From a virus, in the IMG/VR virus record IMGVR_UViG_3300047312_000028, positions 112,326 to 176,325 of that record: a stretch of DNA of 64,000 bases; one strand, 5' to 3'. The position numbers and the translations under genes were made by a program. The stretch's first letter is position 1. The number at the start of each line of letters is the position of its first letter. This document shows, in pieces, positions 28,248 through 63,221 of the stretch. The notes under the pieces are model-generated. The model was not told the DNA's origin. It saw only the letters and a list, made by a program, of their open reading frames with translations, and made no database searches.

Positions 28248-29288
28248 ATGAGTCTCATGGATCGAATGAAGAAGAACAGCAGCATTAGTATTGCTAGTGT
28301 TTTGGACGAGTCAGAAGTCTTCGGTGAACGACAAACAATCCCTACCGAAGTGCCGATTATCAATATTGCATTATCAGGCTCACTGAAGGGCGGATTGACT
28401 TCTGGTGTCACGCAAATTGCAGGTCCCTCAAAACATTTCAAGACTGGTATCGCCCTCTTGCTTATGAGATCGTTCTTGAATCTCTATCCTAAAGAAGGTG
28501 TGATTCTATTCTATGATGCCGAATTCGGAACTCCTCAGTCGTACTTTAAGACGTTTGGCATCGATATGAGCAAAGTGTTCCACACCCCTATTACAGATGT
28601 GGAGCAACTTAAGCACGATATCATGAAGCAACTTGCTGAATTTAAGCGCGGCGAACGAGTCATGATCGTGCTCGATTCGGTAGGACAGCTTGCATCATTG
28701 AAAGAAGTCGAAGATGCGCTTGAAGGGAAACAAGTCGCAGACATGACCCGCGCCAAGGCGCTGAAGTCATTGTTTCGCATGATTACTCCTCATTTGCGTA
28801 TCAAGGATATCCCTTTCGTGGTCGTGAATCATACATACAAAGAAATCGGGATGTTCCCAAAAGACATTCCTGGTGGTGGTACAGGTAGCTACTTCGCTGC
28901 CGATAACATCTGGATCGTTGGTCGCCAGCAAGAGAAAGTTGAAGGGGCGATCACAGGCTTCCACTTTGTCATAAACATCGAAAAGTCACGTTATGTGAGA
29001 GAGAAATCTAAGCTTTCGTTGTCCGTCATGTTTGGAGAAGGAATTGAACAGTACTCAGGTTTGCTCGAACTGGGATTGGAGAGTGGATTTGTTGAGAAGC
29101 CCGCACCAGGATGGTATCTCAAGAAGGGTGAAAAGACACGAGTCCGAGAAGCAGACACTAAGACCGCAGCGTTTTGGAATGATATTCTAAAGGATGAGGC
29201 CTTCAATGAATTTGTTAAGAAGAAGTTTGAAGTGGCTTACGGAGAGATTCTGGAAGACTCCAACGAGACCACTACAAAAACTAAATGA
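28248..29288 (+). CDS. uvsX: RecA-like recombinase UvsX
   Basis: AGPSKHFKT, FYDAEFG, DSVG.LAS.KE, ADMTRAK, KSRYV.EK. Confidence 0.96.
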   Translation: MSLMDRMKKNSSISIASVLDESEVFGERQTIPTEVPIINIALSGSLKGGLTSGVTQIAGPSKHFKTGIALLLMRSFLNLYPKEGVILFYDAEFGTPQSYFKTFGIDMSKVFHTPITDVEQLKHDIMKQLAEFKRGERVMIVLDSVGQLASLKEVEDALEGKQVADMTRAKALKSLFRMITPHLRIKDIPFVVVNHTYKEIGMFPKDIPGGGTGSYFAADNIWIVGRQQEKVEGAITGFHFVINIEKSRYVREKSKLSLSVMFGEGIEQYSGLLELGLESGFVEKPAPGWYLKKGEKTRVREADTKTAAFWNDILKDEAFNEFVKKKFEVAYGEILEDSNETTTKTK

Positions 29289-30953: not shown

Positions 30954-31550
30954 ATGCAAATCAGTGAATTACAATTACCAGAACAACCATTCTTCCCCTA
31001 CGTGACCGTGTTTGATGGTGCGTTGCCACGAGCATTTTGCGAACGAATGATTGGTAAGTTTGAAGCCAACGAAGGGGACGTTCAGCGTCAAACATATCTA
31101 CGAGGGGTGAGAAACTTCACAGAAATCAATGTGTCTGAGAACTGGCACGATGAACATGAAATCATGGTGCGTTGTATTCAATCAGCAACAGCGGCGTATG
31201 TGGCCTACCATGGTATCATATACGATGCACAAATTCCTAGACAGTTTGGGTATGAACAGTTCAGAATGAAGCGATATCTCCCCAATGGCATCGATGTATT
31301 CAACCAGCACGCCGATGTGGGTAACTATGGTTCAGCACGACGCTTTGTGGCATTTCAATGGTATTTGAATACTGTAAAAGAAGGTGGAGAGACGGGGTTT
31401 GGTAGAAAGGCTGATGAAGCAGTCTTAAAGATTCCAGCAGTAGAAGGACGTTTGCTTGTGTTTCCTCCATTATGGACCCATTTACATTGGGGATCAAAAG
31501 TAGTCAGCGGACCTAAGTACATTCTAACTGGATATTTACATTACATCTAA
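30954..31550 (+). CDS. 2OG-Fe(II) oxygenase (prolyl-4-hydroxylase-like)
   Basis: HAD...YLN.V.EGGET...FPP.WTH.H...KY. Confidence 0.88.
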   Translation: MQISELQLPEQPFFPYVTVFDGALPRAFCERMIGKFEANEGDVQRQTYLRGVRNFTEINVSENWHDEHEIMVRCIQSATAAYVAYHGIIYDAQIPRQFGYEQFRMKRYLPNGIDVFNQHADVGNYGSARRFVAFQWYLNTVKEGGETGFGRKADEAVLKIPAVEGRLLVFPPLWTHLHWGSKVVSGPKYILTGYLHYI

Positions 31551-32182
31551 TGAAACTACAACACATTCATGACTTGGTTGTGAAGGTGCCAGAGGGTAGT
31601 CTCACTCCCAAGCAGATCATTCAGCCATTGAGAAAAGCGTTCAAACCCTATCCTTGGATACGGTTTGAGAAAAGAATTATGTCTATTTCAAACGCAAAGG
31701 GTCTTGCTGATGGAATGCTTATCACTGGAAAGTTTGAGCATGATTGGGTTGATCGGCCAGTCTGCTTTGTGACACTGTGGTTTCACTCTGGCAAAGAAGA
31801 TAAGAGTATATGGTTCTCTGGTAAACTAAGAGATCGTATCTTGTTTGATATCTTTGCCACGATTGCTCATGAGCGCGTTCATATGTTGCAGGCGAAGAAA
31901 GCCAAAGCCTGCCCTCGAAACTTTCATGTGAATATAACGCATGATTGGATGTTGAAGCGCGATATTCAATATTACGGATCGAAGATTGAGATTGATGCGT
32001 TCGGTCTTACTTCCGTGCTTGAAGATCGATTCGGTATGTCCGGTGAAATCATAGAACGTTATAGAAAGCTATTCACACCTTATAGTCTTCTCTATAAGCG
32101 ATTCTTAAAGAAAAAGTATGAGTACAACTTGAAAACTCCTCACATAAATAGTTCATTATGCAACCATTCAAAACTCACATAA
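31550..32182 (+). CDS. zincin-like HExxH protein
   Basis: AHERVH..Q...YY...EIDAF. Confidence 0.6.
   Translation: MKLQHIHDLVVKVPEGSLTPKQIIQPLRKAFKPYPWIRFEKRIMSISNAKGLADGMLITGKFEHDWVDRPVCFVTLWFHSGKEDKSIWFSGKLRDRILFDIFATIAHERVHMLQAKKAKACPRNFHVNITHDWMLKRDIQYYGSKIEIDAFGLTSVLEDRFGMSGEIIERYRKLFTPYSLLYKRFLKKKYEYNLKTPHINSSLCNHSKLT
32143..32150 (+). promoter_or_regulatory. late-type promoter
   Basis: CATAAATA 7 nt before ATG 32158. Confidence 0.55.
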
Positions 32183-57301: not shown

Positions 57302-58027
57302 ATGTTTATGAAGTCATTGCGGCATTCGATGCTTGCAGTATCGATGCTGTTTGTGTTTGCACTCATGACGGCATGTAGTTCAGTGTCGTTCTTGCCTATC
57401 ACTGCCGTCGGTCCAGACAGGATGTTGGGGCAACGCACAGTCAACGAAATGAATGCGCTGGCGCCTTCAGTTCAGCGTTCATGGACAGAAGTTTGTAACG
57501 TTCTTATCGTGCAGCACACTGCTCCTTGGGACTGGTCAGAAACATTGTATGAGCCCCCATGTGATCCAGTCGTTATTCCTGGTGCAAACTATGCGAACTC
57601 TCCTGGATACATTGCAGGACTCGCTGCTCCTTTGATTCAAGCAGGAGCAATCGTTGGTGGCGCGTATTTGATTGGGGACGGAATCAAGCATTCTGGCTCT
57701 AAGACTACGAACAACAACGGCGCTTCATCTAATGTCAGCGGTAACACGAACGGCAACAGCAACAATGCTAATGCTCACGGTGGAAACGCGAATGCCCATG
57801 GCGGGAACGCTCAGGGTGGACAGGGTGGAGTTGGTAACGGTGGTCAAGGCGGCGTAGGTAACGGTGGTGAGGGTGGAGTTGGGCAAGGCGGTCAGGGTGG
57901 TGGCGGTGGAATAGGTAACGGCGGCGAGGGCGGCGTCGGAGGCCAGGGTGGCAACGGTGGTCAGGGTGGAGTTGGCGGACAGGGTGGAGCAGGTGGAAAA
58001 GCCTGTGGACAGAACCCAAACTGCTAA
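57302..58027 (+). CDS. lipoprotein with C-terminal glycine-rich repeat
   Basis: lipobox LMTAC; (GG[QE]GGVG[NQ])n; AGGAGG SD. Confidence 0.8.
   Translation: MFMKSLRHSMLAVSMLFVFALMTACSSVSFLPITAVGPDRMLGQRTVNEMNALAPSVQRSWTEVCNVLIVQHTAPWDWSETLYEPPCDPVVIPGANYANSPGYIAGLAAPLIQAGAIVGGAYLIGDGIKHSGSKTTNNNGASSNVSGNTNGNSNNANAHGGNANAHGGNAQGGQGGVGNGGQGGVGNGGEGGVGQGGQGGGGGIGNGGEGGVGGQGGNGGQGGVGGQGGAGGKACGQNPNC
57760..57997 (+). repeat. coding tandem repeats NANAHGG x2 and GG(Q/E)GGVG(N/Q)
   Basis: imperfect ~24-nt repeats. Confidence 0.8.
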
Positions 58028-58052
58028 TCTCTCTTAGTAGTCACTCAGAGAA

Positions 58053-58083
58053 GCTCCGGGGTGTAATGCCCCGGAGCATTTTG
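58053..58083 (+). terminator. Rho-independent terminator
   Basis: GCTCCGGGG-TGTAATG-CCCCGGAGC then ATTTTG. Confidence 0.75.
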
Positions 58084-58301
58084 TTGAAGACTGGAGCTAT
58101 CGATGAATCGTTTAACTCTCTTATGTGCTGTGATTGTTGTTCTCGCGGCAGTCATTGTGTTCATGCAATGATGCTCCTCGTGGCAATACAAGTTTTTTCT
58201 GTCTCAGTCACACTGATAATCATACTTGTCGGTCTCAGTGTCTTAGATAGATTCGGAATGTGGTGTCTTCGTCTTATTGATCGAATAGGGAGTACTTTGA
58301 A

Positions 58302-58481
58302 ATGAACCCAGCGAACTTCCCAGACAACAAAAGACGCAAACAAAAAGAAGCATTGGATCGTAACAATGAATGGAAGCTCATGGCCCCAGGTGCCCAGTTG
58401 AAAGCTCTTGATCGTCGGCCTGGCGCCTGCAAGAAGCAACGAGAAAAGATTCTTGAGAGATTGAAACCAGCAGTGAAGTAG
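58302..58481 (+). CDS. basic 59-aa hypothetical protein
   Basis: GGGAG SD; MNPANFPDNKRRKQKEAL... Confidence 0.5.
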   Translation: MNPANFPDNKRRKQKEALDRNNEWKLMAPGAQLKALDRRPGACKKQREKILERLKPAVK

Positions 58482-58488
58482 AACATAA

Positions 58489-58774
58489 GGGAGAGGTGTG
58501 GCAGAAGTCTCCTTCTTGCGAGGAGAATGCTGAGTACGTTCACCTCGGAAAGAACAAGTAGTTGGCTATTGGGTAGTGCCAGTAGATATGAGGACTCTGG
58601 TGTGGGTCTCATGGTCGCTGAATCACATGTATACATAAAAACCAGCAAGCATGTGACGGAGGGTAAAATCCCCCTAGTTCGTAGAAGCGTTGTTGCAACA
58701 GCGTGGAGAACTATCGCATAGTAACCTGTAGTTGATGAACGTTGTAGGGGTTGGCATCCCTATCACCTCTCCCA
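58489..58774 (+). ncRNA. putative large structured non-coding RNA with tRNA-like topology
   Basis: terminal GGGAGAGGTG/CACCTCTCCC helix ending in CCA, long-range ACGTTCA/TGAACGT helix, at least 6 internal hairpins. Confidence 0.7.
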
Positions 58775-58792
58775 TTTTATTATTGAGGTATC

Positions 58793-59086
58793 ATGAATAA
58801 AACTTTAACCGACGATCAAAAGACAATTAAAGACCTCAGAAGGCAAATCTCTCAACTCAAAGAACAAGGCAACAGGTTCTTCGATCAAATCATATGCCGT
58901 GAGACTTACGGTATGTTCCTTTACCCAAAAGACAAACTCAACATATCGTGGACACTTTCTGATGTGTACGAGCGCGCCCATGCTGCACAGACGCTTGGGT
59001 ATAACGTACTGATTCGTGTGGATGATAAAGGGTTGCACGTCGATTACGCGAAGAAGCTCCCAAACTCACGACCATGGGCATTCTAA
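58793..59086 (+). CDS. hypothetical protein
   Basis: GAGGT SD, 97-aa ORF. Confidence 0.6.
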   Translation: MNKTLTDDQKTIKDLRRQISQLKEQGNRFFDQIICRETYGMFLYPKDKLNISWTLSDVYERAHAAQTLGYNVLIRVDDKGLHVDYAKKLPNSRPWAF

Positions 59087-59105
59087 ATCTAAAAGGAGTG
59101 CAATC

Positions 59106-59537
59106 ATGAAACTGGCATTGAAATACTGGTTAGTCATGGCGGCAATTGTTGCTGCTATCGCATTGTTCGGTGCACTCGCCCAGGCATCTGATAAGATACA
59201 ATCATGTGTACAAGCAGATGGCACAATGATCTACACGAACAAAGATATCAAAGGGTGCACAACTCTAAAGGCACATGAACTTTCCGTGGTTCCCTCTTAC
59301 GATCAGATTAAGCACGAAGATATTGCTCAGTCATTGATCGTGCCAACCCCGCCAGTCGTTCTTACCCCCGAAATCTCAAGCGTCTTGAGCGATACCTGCC
59401 AACTCTATCATGAATGGGTCAAACTAAATTCAACAGACCAAGGTGGGCTGAGAAACAACACAATAGAACGTCAACAGCGACGTGTGGCACTCACGATGAT
59501 TTTCGGATCAGGCTTCTCACCTTCAAACTGCAAATAA
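59106..59537 (+). CDS. secreted DUF4124-like protein
   Basis: signal peptide; C...DG...YTNK...GC. Confidence 0.6.
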   Translation: MKLALKYWLVMAAIVAAIALFGALAQASDKIQSCVQADGTMIYTNKDIKGCTTLKAHELSVVPSYDQIKHEDIAQSLIVPTPPVVLTPEISSVLSDTCQLYHEWVKLNSTDQGGLRNNTIERQQRRVALTMIFGSGFSPSNCK

Positions 59538-60179: not shown

Positions 60180-60974
60180 ATGATTATCTCAAACATACCG
60201 CACAAGATGTTTAAGTTCCCTGTGGGCGAAATGCAGGTGAATGTAGAGTATGAACGCCCCTATGATAGTGCTGTTCATGCTGTCAATGTGACGTTTACAT
60301 TCACAAAGAACGAAGACATTATCGAACTCATGTTGTTTGTTGATGCGTGTAAGCGCCAGGGAATGGTCTTAGGTACGCTCACGATGCCGTATGTGCCGTT
60401 TAGTCGCCAGGATCGTAAGAATGCTATTGGAGAATCATTCAGTCTTGCTGTCTTCTGCAATCTCATTAACTCACTCAACTTCTTTCAAGTTGTTGTGCAT
60501 GATCCGCATTCTGATGTGACACCCGCCCTCTTGAATAACTGCTTCGTGCGCGAACAACATACGATGTTGAAGCCTATCCTTGATAAGAACTTAGGCGCTC
60601 AACCATTCTATCTTGTCAGCCCTGATGCTGGCGCACTCAAAAAGATATACAAACTGGCAAAGATGTTTGATAACAACAGGATGATTGGTGTGATTGAGTG
60701 CGGAAAGAAGCGCGATACATCGACGGGTGATATCACAGGCACAGTCATATACAGAACACAACCACTCGTGCCTCAAGTGCCATGTGTGATGATCGATGAT
60801 ATTTGTGATGGTGGGCGAACATTCGTTGAACTTGGTAAAGCACTCAAAGCAAAAGGCGCAGAGAGAGTCCACCTCTATGTGACACACGGATTCTTCACGA
60901 AGGGTCTTGATGTGTTCAATGGAATTGTTGATGTAGTCGATGCAGCACACTTTTATCCGAGCTTCAAATCATGA
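60180..60974 (+). CDS. prs: ribose-phosphate pyrophosphokinase-like protein (Prs; Adps-like)
   Basis: FP.GE, MPY.PFSRQDR, DPHS, SPDAGA, IDDICDGGRTF, VTHG.F. Confidence 0.9.
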   Translation: MIISNIPHKMFKFPVGEMQVNVEYERPYDSAVHAVNVTFTFTKNEDIIELMLFVDACKRQGMVLGTLTMPYVPFSRQDRKNAIGESFSLAVFCNLINSLNFFQVVVHDPHSDVTPALLNNCFVREQHTMLKPILDKNLGAQPFYLVSPDAGALKKIYKLAKMFDNNRMIGVIECGKKRDTSTGDITGTVIYRTQPLVPQVPCVMIDDICDGGRTFVELGKALKAKGAERVHLYVTHGFFTKGLDVFNGIVDVVDAAHFYPSFKS

Positions 60975-61763: not shown

Positions 61764-63221
61764 ATGAGCACATCCCCAATACATTTTTCAGATTTCTACA
61801 AAACAGATCACGCACGTCAAGCGCCTGATGGTACGACAGGTATTTATGCGAACATGACGCCGCGCGGATCACGTATTGAGGGGATTGATAAGGTGGTTGT
61901 GTTCGGCTTTCAATATTTCGTGCTTGAGTATCTAATCAAGCGATTCAATCGAGACTTTTTCGAGCAGCCTAAGGACCTTGCCGTTCGGAGATATAAGCGC
62001 AGACTTGACAATGCCCTAGGCAAAGATGCTGTAGAGGTCTCACGATGGGAGAAGCTGCATGATCTTGGCTATCTACCATTGCATATCAAGGCGCTGAACG
62101 AAGGATTGTTGTGTCCTATGCGTGTGCCTGCACTCACAATTCGTGAGACACATCCAGATTTCTATTGGCTACCTACATGGATGGAAACGCTGTTATCAAC
62201 AGTCACATGGCATCCGATGACTAGCGCGACGATTGCACACCAATATCGTGTACTGATTGATGCGTATGCTGTAGAGACTTCAGACATTCCAAACTTTGCA
62301 GATTGGCAGGGGCATGACTTCAGTATGCGTGGTCATACAAGTGTTGAATCATCCTGTGTGAGCGGCATGGCGCACTTGTTAAGCTTCACAGGTACAGATA
62401 CGATTCCAGCAATTGATTTCCTCGAGGAATACTATTTTGCCAACTCTGATGAAGAGTTAGTGGGTGGTAGTGTGCCTGCGACTGAACACTCGGTCATGTG
62501 TTTGGGTAGTAAAGAGACTGAATTTGAAACATATAAACGCCTTATCTCTAAAGTGTATCCAAAGGGATTCATTAGCATTGTGTCAGACACATGGGACTAC
62601 TGGAAGATTCTCACAGAGGTGCTCCCTGCCTTGAAAGCAGAGATCATGGCACGAGATGGTCGCGTGGTCATACGACCTGACTCAGGCGATCCTGTGAAAA
62701 TCATTTGTGGCGACCCTGATGCACCCAAAGGGAGCCCAGCACACAAAGGCACTATCGAATTGCTCTACGAAGCATTCGGTGGTGAGAAGAACTCGAAAGG
62801 GTACATACAGCTTGATACCCATATCGGTGCTATCTATGGTGATTCGATCACTCTGCAACGTGCCAAAGAGATACTTGAGGGATTGAAGAGTAAAGGATTT
62901 GCATCCACCAACATAGTATTCGGCATCGGTTCATTCACATATCAATATGTGACACGAGACACATTTGGATTCGCAGTGAAAGCAACCTCAGGTATTATCA
63001 ATGGGGAACGAGTAGCGATCTTCAAAGATCCAAAGACTGATTCAGGTCTTAAGCGATCTGCAAAGGGATTACTCAGAGTCAATGCAGACTTCAGCTTATC
63101 GGAAGATGTGACTGAAGATGAAGAGAAAGAGGGATTACTTGAAACCATATTCGACAATGGGGTAGCATACAACCTTCAAACACTTACGGAGATTCGTAAG
63201 AGATTGGCAGAGCAGCTATGA
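61764..63221 (+). CDS. nadV: nicotinamide phosphoribosyltransferase-like protein (NAMPT; Namat-like)
   Basis: DFYK..H, HDFS.RG, GTDT, SVPATEHS, SIVSDTWD, RPDSGDP, IYGDSIT, K.SAKG. Confidence 0.93.
   Translation: MSTSPIHFSDFYKTDHARQAPDGTTGIYANMTPRGSRIEGIDKVVVFGFQYFVLEYLIKRFNRDFFEQPKDLAVRRYKRRLDNALGKDAVEVSRWEKLHDLGYLPLHIKALNEGLLCPMRVPALTIRETHPDFYWLPTWMETLLSTVTWHPMTSATIAHQYRVLIDAYAVETSDIPNFADWQGHDFSMRGHTSVESSCVSGMAHLLSFTGTDTIPAIDFLEEYYFANSDEELVGGSVPATEHSVMCLGSKETEFETYKRLISKVYPKGFISIVSDTWDYWKILTEVLPALKAEIMARDGRVVIRPDSGDPVKIICGDPDAPKGSPAHKGTIELLYEAFGGEKNSKGYIQLDTHIGAIYGDSITLQRAKEILEGLKSKGFASTNIVFGIGSFTYQYVTRDTFGFAVKATSGIINGERVAIFKDPKTDSGLKRSAKGLLRVNADFSLSEDVTEDEEKEGLLETIFDNGVAYNLQTLTEIRKRLAEQL

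Follow-up and report, generated by a model that had tools for sequence, protein, structure and literature searches.

Few large RNAs combine multi-way junctions with covarying tertiary contacts, and historically such molecules have proved to be ribozymes, riboswitches or the cores of RNA-protein machines. The lysine riboswitch (L-box, RF00168) and the cobalamin aptamers are known from published crystal structures to possess a closing helix P1, a five-way junction, loop-loop kissing and a loop-E-like motif, and the lysine riboswitch lies directly upstream of an ORF. The tmRNA (RF00023) joins its ends in a terminal helix, carries a stacked 3' hairpin and leads via a long helix to a pseudoknot-rich domain; it is also carried by phages. 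Phage T4 provides two further points of reference, namely gene 38, which has a discontinuous ribosome-binding site around a hairpin insert of ~20 nt, and rnaC/rnaD (species 1 and 2), stable non-tRNA RNAs of ~120-140 nt that lie in the tRNA cluster and are processed from a longer transcript. Bacteria and phages also possess orphan 'ornate' RNAs (raiA, ROOL, GOLLD and OLE), for which cryo-EM has been published (PMC12286853); these are large, with intricate folds backed by covariation, and ROOL as well as GOLLD occur in phage or prophage DNA. The RNA described here, of ~285 nt, folds autonomously and represents a new non-coding RNA family, found only in an uncultured group of T4-like phages.

The window (the whole stretch of DNA analysed) comprises the final 64 kb of a 176,325-bp IMG/VR phage record. 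The replication genes are of the T4 type (gp43 polymerase, clamp loader, gp41-like helicase and primase) and the polymerase is ~48% identical to that of the closest cultured phages, the T4-like cyanophages; the source phage is a member of an uncultured T4-like phage clade. Genes on the + strand are tightly packed around the RNA, which occupies the sole large gap nearby, a gene-free interval of 310 nt (58482-58792) between a 59-aa ORF upstream (58302-58481) and a 97-aa ORF downstream (58793-59086). An earlier note on this DNA had proposed a novel structured phage RNA with a topology resembling that of tRNA and tmRNA. Every part listed there is present in the window at the positions given, and the segment folds better than dinucleotide shuffles (z of -3.4 for the + strand, -5.3 for the - strand). 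The proposal of a novel structured RNA holds on the grounds of covariation, the lack of any Rfam match and the lack of a conserved ORF, while the likeness to tRNA and tmRNA is confined to the order of helices around a four-way junction, the defining features of both molecules having failed.

The homologue and covariation analysis which that note had recommended yielded seven further distinct homologues from metagenomic phage contigs, giving eight sequences in all with 65-87% pairwise identity. An nhmmer profile finds the RNA at E values of 1e-80 to 1e-93 in eight distinct lineages, with one copy per genome. The first homologue (L008, a 1-kb metagenome contig) was reached via the 97-aa neighbour protein, a relative of which (53% identical) is encoded there, preceded by an evident copy of the RNA. 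Block patterns common to the window and L008 copies led to L010 and to the L011/L012/L014 lineage (IMG/VR and JGI contigs). Further, a profile of the 143-aa protein encoded two genes downstream retrieved ~28 phage-type relatives, and their contigs added L025/L026, L029, L032/L033 and L034. The environments from which L025, L010 and L011 derive are groundwater, soil and freshwater. Searches of IMG/VR for close relatives with the 97-aa gene and a Prs-like gene gave nothing useful, and a degenerate pattern of the invariant blocks disclosed no new member either in IMG/VR or in 185,579 prokaryote species (one genome each). Several candidates from the pattern scans were discarded: L002/L003, from a closing-helix pattern scan of IMG/VR, are reverse complements of one unrelated sequence and a chance match, and L009, L013, L015, L018 and L019, from the block-pattern scans, are coding regions without further similarity.

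With regard to novelty, Rfam 15 places no family in the window at gathering thresholds and nothing meaningful there at E<=10, and searches with four homologues were likewise without a family at either level. The weak matches to CRISPR-DR60, c4-a1b1, DUF3800-XI, rli48, sR7 and SNORD39 are noise, each occurring in one homologue only, at differing places and far below threshold. Furthermore, 50,697 GenBank phages contain no match to the RNA and no description of it was found in the literature. The novelty asserted earlier thus stands after the Rfam comparison, and the family, being absent from Rfam, is a candidate for a new entry.

The fold is supported by compensatory change. RNAalifold, applied to the eight sequences, predicts 86 pairs, 43 of them with compensatory double changes. 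When 93 pairs, including two pseudoknots, were tested in the eight-sequence alignment, standard pairs occupied 96.5% of 735 cells and double compensatory changes were present at 46 of the 93 pairs, against 6-13 when the 3' partners were slid by 1-3 columns; none of 500 shuffles matched the observed pairing measures. The alignment contains 91 G·U cells, which would be C·A mismatches on the opposite strand, and the RNA is therefore made from the + strand. A brute-force hunt for additional covarying columns was too noisy at eight sequences. The secondary and partial tertiary structure is well determined from only these eight.

The structured RNA is real and non-coding. Substitutions track base pairing instead of codon position, and an open reading frame common to all homologues was not found; a coding reading, based on a 64-aa ORF (58527-58721) and a 21-codon GUG frame, was rejected as neither frame is open across the homologues. 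Purifying selection is stronger on the RNA than on the neighbouring protein genes, with a mean identity of 74.5% for the RNA versus 57.6% for the adjacent 143-aa gene at the DNA level. The features of the RNA are collected in Table 1.

Table 1. Features of the structured RNA and its 3' flank (positions in the window)
Feature	Positions	Strand	Basis or remark
Whole structured RNA, core bounded by closing helix P1	58489..58773	+	nhmmer profile and covariation
P1, 5' strand GGAGAGGUG	58490..58498	+	Pairs with 58764-58772; two positions covary (G-C/G·U/A-U and C-G/A-U/G-C)
P1, 3' strand CACCUCUCC	58764..58772	+	Includes the CC of the 'CCA' of the earlier note
P2	58500..58531	+	GGCA/UGCU helix (58500-03 with 58528-31), asymmetric GAAG/A internal loop, stem of 5-7 bp (58510-14 with 58520-24), CUUGC loop
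Junction segment: AGUA, 2-bp hairpin with loop U(G/U)CACCU, then GAAAG	58533..58552	+	2-bp stem (58537-38 with 58546-47) covaries: C-G, G-C, A-U, U·G
P3, AAC/GUU	58553..58555 with 58741-58743	+	RNAalifold prediction
P4, variable long arm, 13 bp	58561..58574 with 58723-58736	+	10/13 pairs with compensatory double changes
Inner domain: P5 (GUGC/GCAU) closing a five-way junction with P6, P7, P8 and P9/P9a	58576..58719	+	Covariation; P5 pairs 58576-79 with 58716-19
P6	58580-58620	+	3-6 covarying pairs
P7	58624-58655	+	3-6 covarying pairs
P8	58658-58674	+	Nearly invariant
P9/P9a	58675-58713	+	3-6 covarying pairs each
P10, 8-bp hairpin with invariant UGGC tetraloop	58744..58763	+	Pairs 58744-51 with 58756-63; three covarying stem pairs
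PK1, P6-loop UGGU with P7-loop ACCA	58598..58601 with 58641-58644	+	Compatible 8/8
PK2, P2-loop CUUGC with P7-loop GCAAG	58515..58519 with 58645-58649	+	Perfect complementarity 8/8
A/U-rich 3' flank and Shine-Dalgarno sequence (GAGG) of the next gene (ATG at 58793)	58774..58792	+	Sequence

The fold consists of ten helices. Inside the closing helix lies an outer junction of four helices, from which a long variable arm leads to an inner junction of five. The closing helix, given earlier as 10 bp, does have that length in the window and does covary, but its conserved, G+C-rich core is limited to 9 bp. Next to it, the segment formerly likened to a D-arm with an inserted hairpin persists in the homologues as the GGCA/UGCU helix of P2, where alignment A5 shows C-G, U·G, A-U and U-A at columns 20/45 and C-G and U-A at columns 27/41. 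In the junction segment, AGUA is invariant and GAA is present in seven of the eight sequences (AAA in L008); the pattern is consistent with a possible S-turn (loop E) module presenting the ACCU loop. A long-range helix ACGTTCA/TGAACGT (58536-42 with 58736-42) had been placed in the anticodon-stem position. It is restricted to the window copy, and in its place the conserved pairings are P3, which is nearly invariant so that covariation is uninformative there, and the 13-bp variable arm P4. The inner hairpins (58586-58614, 58624-58655, 58658-58674 and 58675-58713) are all upheld by the seven homologues, as is the 3' hairpin P10 (58744-58763), which abuts both P3 and the closing helix with zero spacer. 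In L034, U-A replaces G·U as the pair that closes the P10 loop. As a separate observation, the loop of the P9a hairpin (58687-58704) is self-complementary, with UGCA within UGUUGCAACA in seven sequences and, in L034, a different stem and a loop with GAUC. Such a loop could permit loop-loop homodimerisation, as read from the sequence pattern, but may also have arisen by chance.

Two loop-loop pseudoknots lock this fold compactly. PK2, which was absent from the earlier note, links the loop of P2 with that of P7 (3' half) and covaries perfectly in all eight sequences, in three haplotypes (CUUGC/GCAAG in four sequences, CUCAC/GUGAG in three and CCCAC/GUGGG in one). PK1 corresponds to a kissing pair that had been suggested as CUGGU/ACCAG. 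It is compatible with all eight sequences, but the only change seen is one-sided, ACUA replacing ACCA in three homologues (G-C to G·U), and double compensatory changes number zero.

As to the comparison with tRNA and tmRNA, the 3' CCA to which attention had been drawn is present in six of the eight sequences and missing in L034 and L008; both C residues lie paired inside P1, with the 5' GG as partner in every full-length homologue. A tRNA acceptor has a 7-bp helix followed by a single-stranded discriminator and CCA, and P1 has 9 bp and neither of these. In place of the 5-bp stem and 7-nt UUCRANY loop of a T-arm, P10 offers 8 bp and a UGGC tetraloop closed by a covarying pair, in agreement with the earlier observation that a T-loop is lacking. 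The G3·U70 pair is likewise lacking, as reported before, the third pair of P1 being A-U in all seven sequences that possess it. The RNA shares with tmRNA a similar size along with the architecture outlined above. It has neither sequence nor model similarity to tmRNA, and a free ACCA, an analogue of the D-loop and a reading frame for a tag are all lacking. No frame is open in every homologue, and RF00023 gives no match at E<=10 in four homologues. The recommended ARAGORN search found no tRNA or tmRNA gene in the window or in the seven homologues. Similarly, the Rfam tRNA model (RF00005) has no match at the RNA, yet recognises 22 tRNAs elsewhere in the genome, and no RNase P model matches the RNA.

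Moreover, genuine representatives of these classes are encoded by the same phage. A tmRNA scoring 83.6 bits in Rfam is located at 28445-28796 of the genome (L037:8445-8796), inside the tRNA cluster, and ends in ...CUCCACCA; this tmRNA and all 28 phage tRNAs encode a free NCCA. A class A RNase P RNA of 176.6 bits (threshold 100) is present in the same cluster at genome positions 31495-31797 (L037:11495-11797). The phage thus carries the real molecules elsewhere, and the RNA is not a tRNA, a tmRNA or an RNase P RNA. Group I and II introns are also without an Rfam match at this locus, and the RNA sits between complete ORFs. A Y-RNA reading was rejected because the genome has no TROVE/Rsr gene and hence no partner.

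The remaining described systems share architecture or setting with the RNA, and differ in other respects. The RNA resembles the lysine riboswitch and cobalamin aptamers in the closing P1, five-way junction, kissing loops and loop-E-like motif, and the lysine riboswitch in lying directly upstream of an ORF. In contrast to the lysine riboswitch, it is ~100 nt longer, has an extra outer four-way junction and a long, stable P1, lacks a model match and an expression platform, and is followed by genes that vary and are not metabolic. Compared with the ornate RNAs raiA, ROOL, GOLLD and OLE, it is similarly large and intricate, and the self-complementary P9a loop could, as judged from the sequence, allow the self-association known for them. 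Unlike them, it has no match to their models at E<=10 and does not lie beside tRNA genes, and ROOL and GOLLD greatly exceed it in size. Like rnaC/rnaD of T4, it is a non-tRNA RNA of a T4-type phage for which stability and processing from a longer transcript are proposed here, but it is twice as long as these, pseudoknotted and ~137 kb away from the cluster of tRNAs, tmRNA and RNase P RNA. As in T4 gene 38, a folded insert could join a Shine-Dalgarno-like motif and an AUG; here, however, the insert would be a conserved element of 285 nt and only three lineages are without a local Shine-Dalgarno sequence.

The distribution of the RNA among related phages indicates how loosely it is tied to its neighbours. 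It is present in eight lineages, and about half of the related phages are without it, ~8 of them at the same junction (L020, L024, L027, L028, L030/31, L042/43 and L044). At these RNA-less junctions, an AGGAG site and then the 143-aa gene with its ATG come straight after the upstream stop codon; the junctions are not clean deletions and exhibit no exon continuity. Where the RNA is present, the gene after it belongs to one of three unrelated kinds, namely the 97-aa family (window, L011, L029, L025 and L008), an unrelated 92-aa family (L032) or the 143-aa gene itself (L010 and L034). The 97-aa gene is also found without the RNA in L006/L007, the upstream gene differs between RNA-bearing lineages as well, and among the few neighbourhoods available none of the proteins strictly accompanies the RNA. 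Owing to this optional presence and the variable following gene, the RNA can be regarded as a self-contained, dispensable module.

The module resides in an island with a recognisable gene order. In relatives this runs through DUF6915, a 95-aa gene, a gene of ~135 aa with an EEYxHD end, the optional RNA and an optional small gene to the 143-aa secreted protein, a Prs-like gene and then a NAMPT-like gene. In the window, the Prs-like (phrog_619; 60180-60974) and NAMPT-like (phrog_448; 61764-63221) genes lie on the + strand, 1.4-3 kb downstream of the RNA, and the pair looks like the NARP1 NAD+-reconstitution pathway of counter-defence. The same island in relatives contains Acb5-like and WYL_2 genes, with an Acb5-like gene between the Prs-like and NAMPT-like genes in L024 and L029, and endonuclease VII is also nearby. 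The 143-aa protein (59106-59537) has a signal peptide and four conserved cysteines and is kept across the phage clade; it matches no Pfam or PHROG family. Its relatives of ~190 aa (28-30% identity) are annotated in Nitrospira/Nitrospiraceae metagenome bins, which may hint at the host.

As for transcription, a consensus scan gave neither a promoter nor a terminator belonging to the RNA itself, with no sigma-70-type promoter in 57900-59300, and the stop codons of the upstream genes lie 12-17 nt before P1. For these reasons the RNA is inferred to be co-transcribed with the upstream gene. A strong hairpin resembling an intrinsic terminator (58053-58077; 11 bp with eight G-C pairs, then a T-rich tract) is located just 3' of a 241-aa ORF (57302-58027) and overlaps the start of the ORF at 58066-58305. 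The RNA-bearing transcript probably starts downstream of this hairpin.

The reading preferred here, held tentatively, is that of a stable accessory RNA which is trimmed from a polycistronic early transcript and acts in trans. Transcribed together with the upstream gene as part of an accessory early operon, the RNA would lose its unstructured flanks (purine-rich on the 5' side, A/U-rich on the 3' side) by trimming, and a nuclease-resistant core closed by P1 would be left. Invariant exposed elements would then bind a host or phage factor in trans, candidates being the P10 UGGC tetraloop, the ACCU loop on the S-turn-like stem, a GGAG bulge and the junction nucleotides. A stable stand-alone molecule is suggested because P1 is long, G+C-rich and stacked on P10 and the fold is compactly locked, and also because the RNA is independent of any single neighbour and its exposed loops are strongly conserved. 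A stable terminal helix of the P1 type is typical of stand-alone stable RNAs, and not of switching aptamers. Judged from the genomic neighbourhood, the role would probably be host takeover or counter-defence, the link to anti-defence being suggested by the adjoining genes. Against action in trans, the RNA is always found just upstream of a same-strand start codon, which in three lineages lacks a Shine-Dalgarno sequence, and it is not among the RNAs of the tRNA cluster that are processed elsewhere in the genome. The clade already carries tRNAs, tmRNA, RNase P RNA and an NAD+-reconstitution pair. Since the RNA is small enough for SHAPE, crystallography or cryo-EM, its structure is amenable to direct study, and knowing its partner or activity could reveal a new RNA-based control of phage expression or manipulation of the host.

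The same position before a start codon gives weight to the main rival explanation, in which the RNA would work in cis as a leader or intercistronic control element (similar to a riboswitch, or an operator for a protein or another RNA) and set the translation of the next cistron and of the operon behind it; this is a serious possibility, though an unlikely one. In all eight lineages the RNA directly precedes the next ORF and shares its strand, ending 8-36 nt before the start codon, and the operon continues to the Prs-like and NAMPT-like genes. The RNA has the conserved, aptamer-like fold, closed by P1 and placed upstream of a gene, that generally marks a riboswitch, and the multi-way junctions with invariant linkers and the kissing loops add to this resemblance. 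In one variant, folding of P1 (perhaps stabilised by a ligand) would occlude a start site 8-11 nt downstream; in another, P1 would bring the Shine-Dalgarno-like GAAAGGA, 4-5 nt upstream of P1, beside the AUG.

The flanks bear upon the second variant in particular. The T-run that had been noted after the closing helix is specific to the window, the other homologues having AUUAUAUUA, and the 3' flank reads AUUAU(A/U)UUA in six of eight. In L029 (2190-2200), L025 (2702-2712) and L032/L033 (2215-2228), an AUG without its own Shine-Dalgarno sequence lies 8-11 nt past P1 within AUUAU(A/U)UUAUG, and L011 (5666-5705) retains AUUAUAUUAUG, which opens a 3-codon mini-ORF before the real start with its Shine-Dalgarno sequence. 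Further, six of the seven homologues with a known 5' flank share a conserved GAAAGGAAAAC immediately ahead of P1. Because this motif stands 5' of P1 and an AUG without a Shine-Dalgarno sequence stands 3' of it, P1 could juxtapose the parts of a split ribosome-binding site; the two motifs may represent such a site or a processing signal. However, the following gene comes from three unrelated families, an ordinary downstream Shine-Dalgarno sequence is present in five lineages, and P1 stands anywhere from 8 to 36 nt ahead of the AUG. A conserved alternative helix, terminator or partner sequestering the Shine-Dalgarno sequence, as expected of an expression platform, was not found among the homologues, and P1 is unlikely to switch because it is long and G+C-rich. 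In addition, the window copy lacks the GAAAGGA flank, and phages without the RNA express the same operon via a simple AGGAG site.

A ribozyme, which would cleave or process itself between cistrons or act upon another substrate, is improbable. The size and complexity of the RNA fall within the range of large ribozymes, its junction and loop nucleotides are invariant, the double pseudoknot locks the fold, and the intercistronic position comes with conserved single-stranded flanks. Nonetheless, the Rfam ribozymes (group I/II introns, RNase P, HDV-like, glmS, twister, hatchet and hammerhead) show no similarity to it, and the homologues contain neither a conserved candidate cleavage site nor exon-like continuity across the RNA.

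Elements of these alternatives can be combined into a more specific and highly improbable proposal, in which a new ligand-sensing or catalytic RNA class would gate the counter-defence operon via a discontinuous ribosome-binding site assembled by P1. A NAD+-related or immune-signalling nucleotide would trigger folding of the pseudoknotted core and thereby close P1, and the closed P1 would activate the translation of genes that lead up to the Prs-like/NAMPT-like pair.

The idea that the RNA imitates tRNA or tmRNA (as a decoy that would draw anticodon nucleases, or as a degenerate tmRNA that RNase P would process and that might be aminoacylated) is largely refuted by the membership tests and extremely improbable: a four-way junction of terminal helix, 5' arm, pseudoknotted long arm and 3' hairpin (spacers of 1, ~21, 0 and 0 nt), the phage's own RNase P RNA and its heavy investment in tRNA biology speak for it, and the silence of ARAGORN and of the Rfam tRNA and tmRNA models, the 9-bp terminal helix with its paired CC, the tetraloop of P10 and the want of an anticodon-like loop speak against. 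Apart from this, the genuine molecules of the tRNA cluster have peculiarities of their own. The T-loop of the genome's tmRNA is the non-canonical UUGCAAU, and this tmRNA was overlooked by ARAGORN; several of the 28 phage tRNAs also have unusual T-loops (for example, GGUGCAA and GAGCGAA). RNase P RNA is uncommon on phages, and the one encoded here is compact, with a length of 303 nt.
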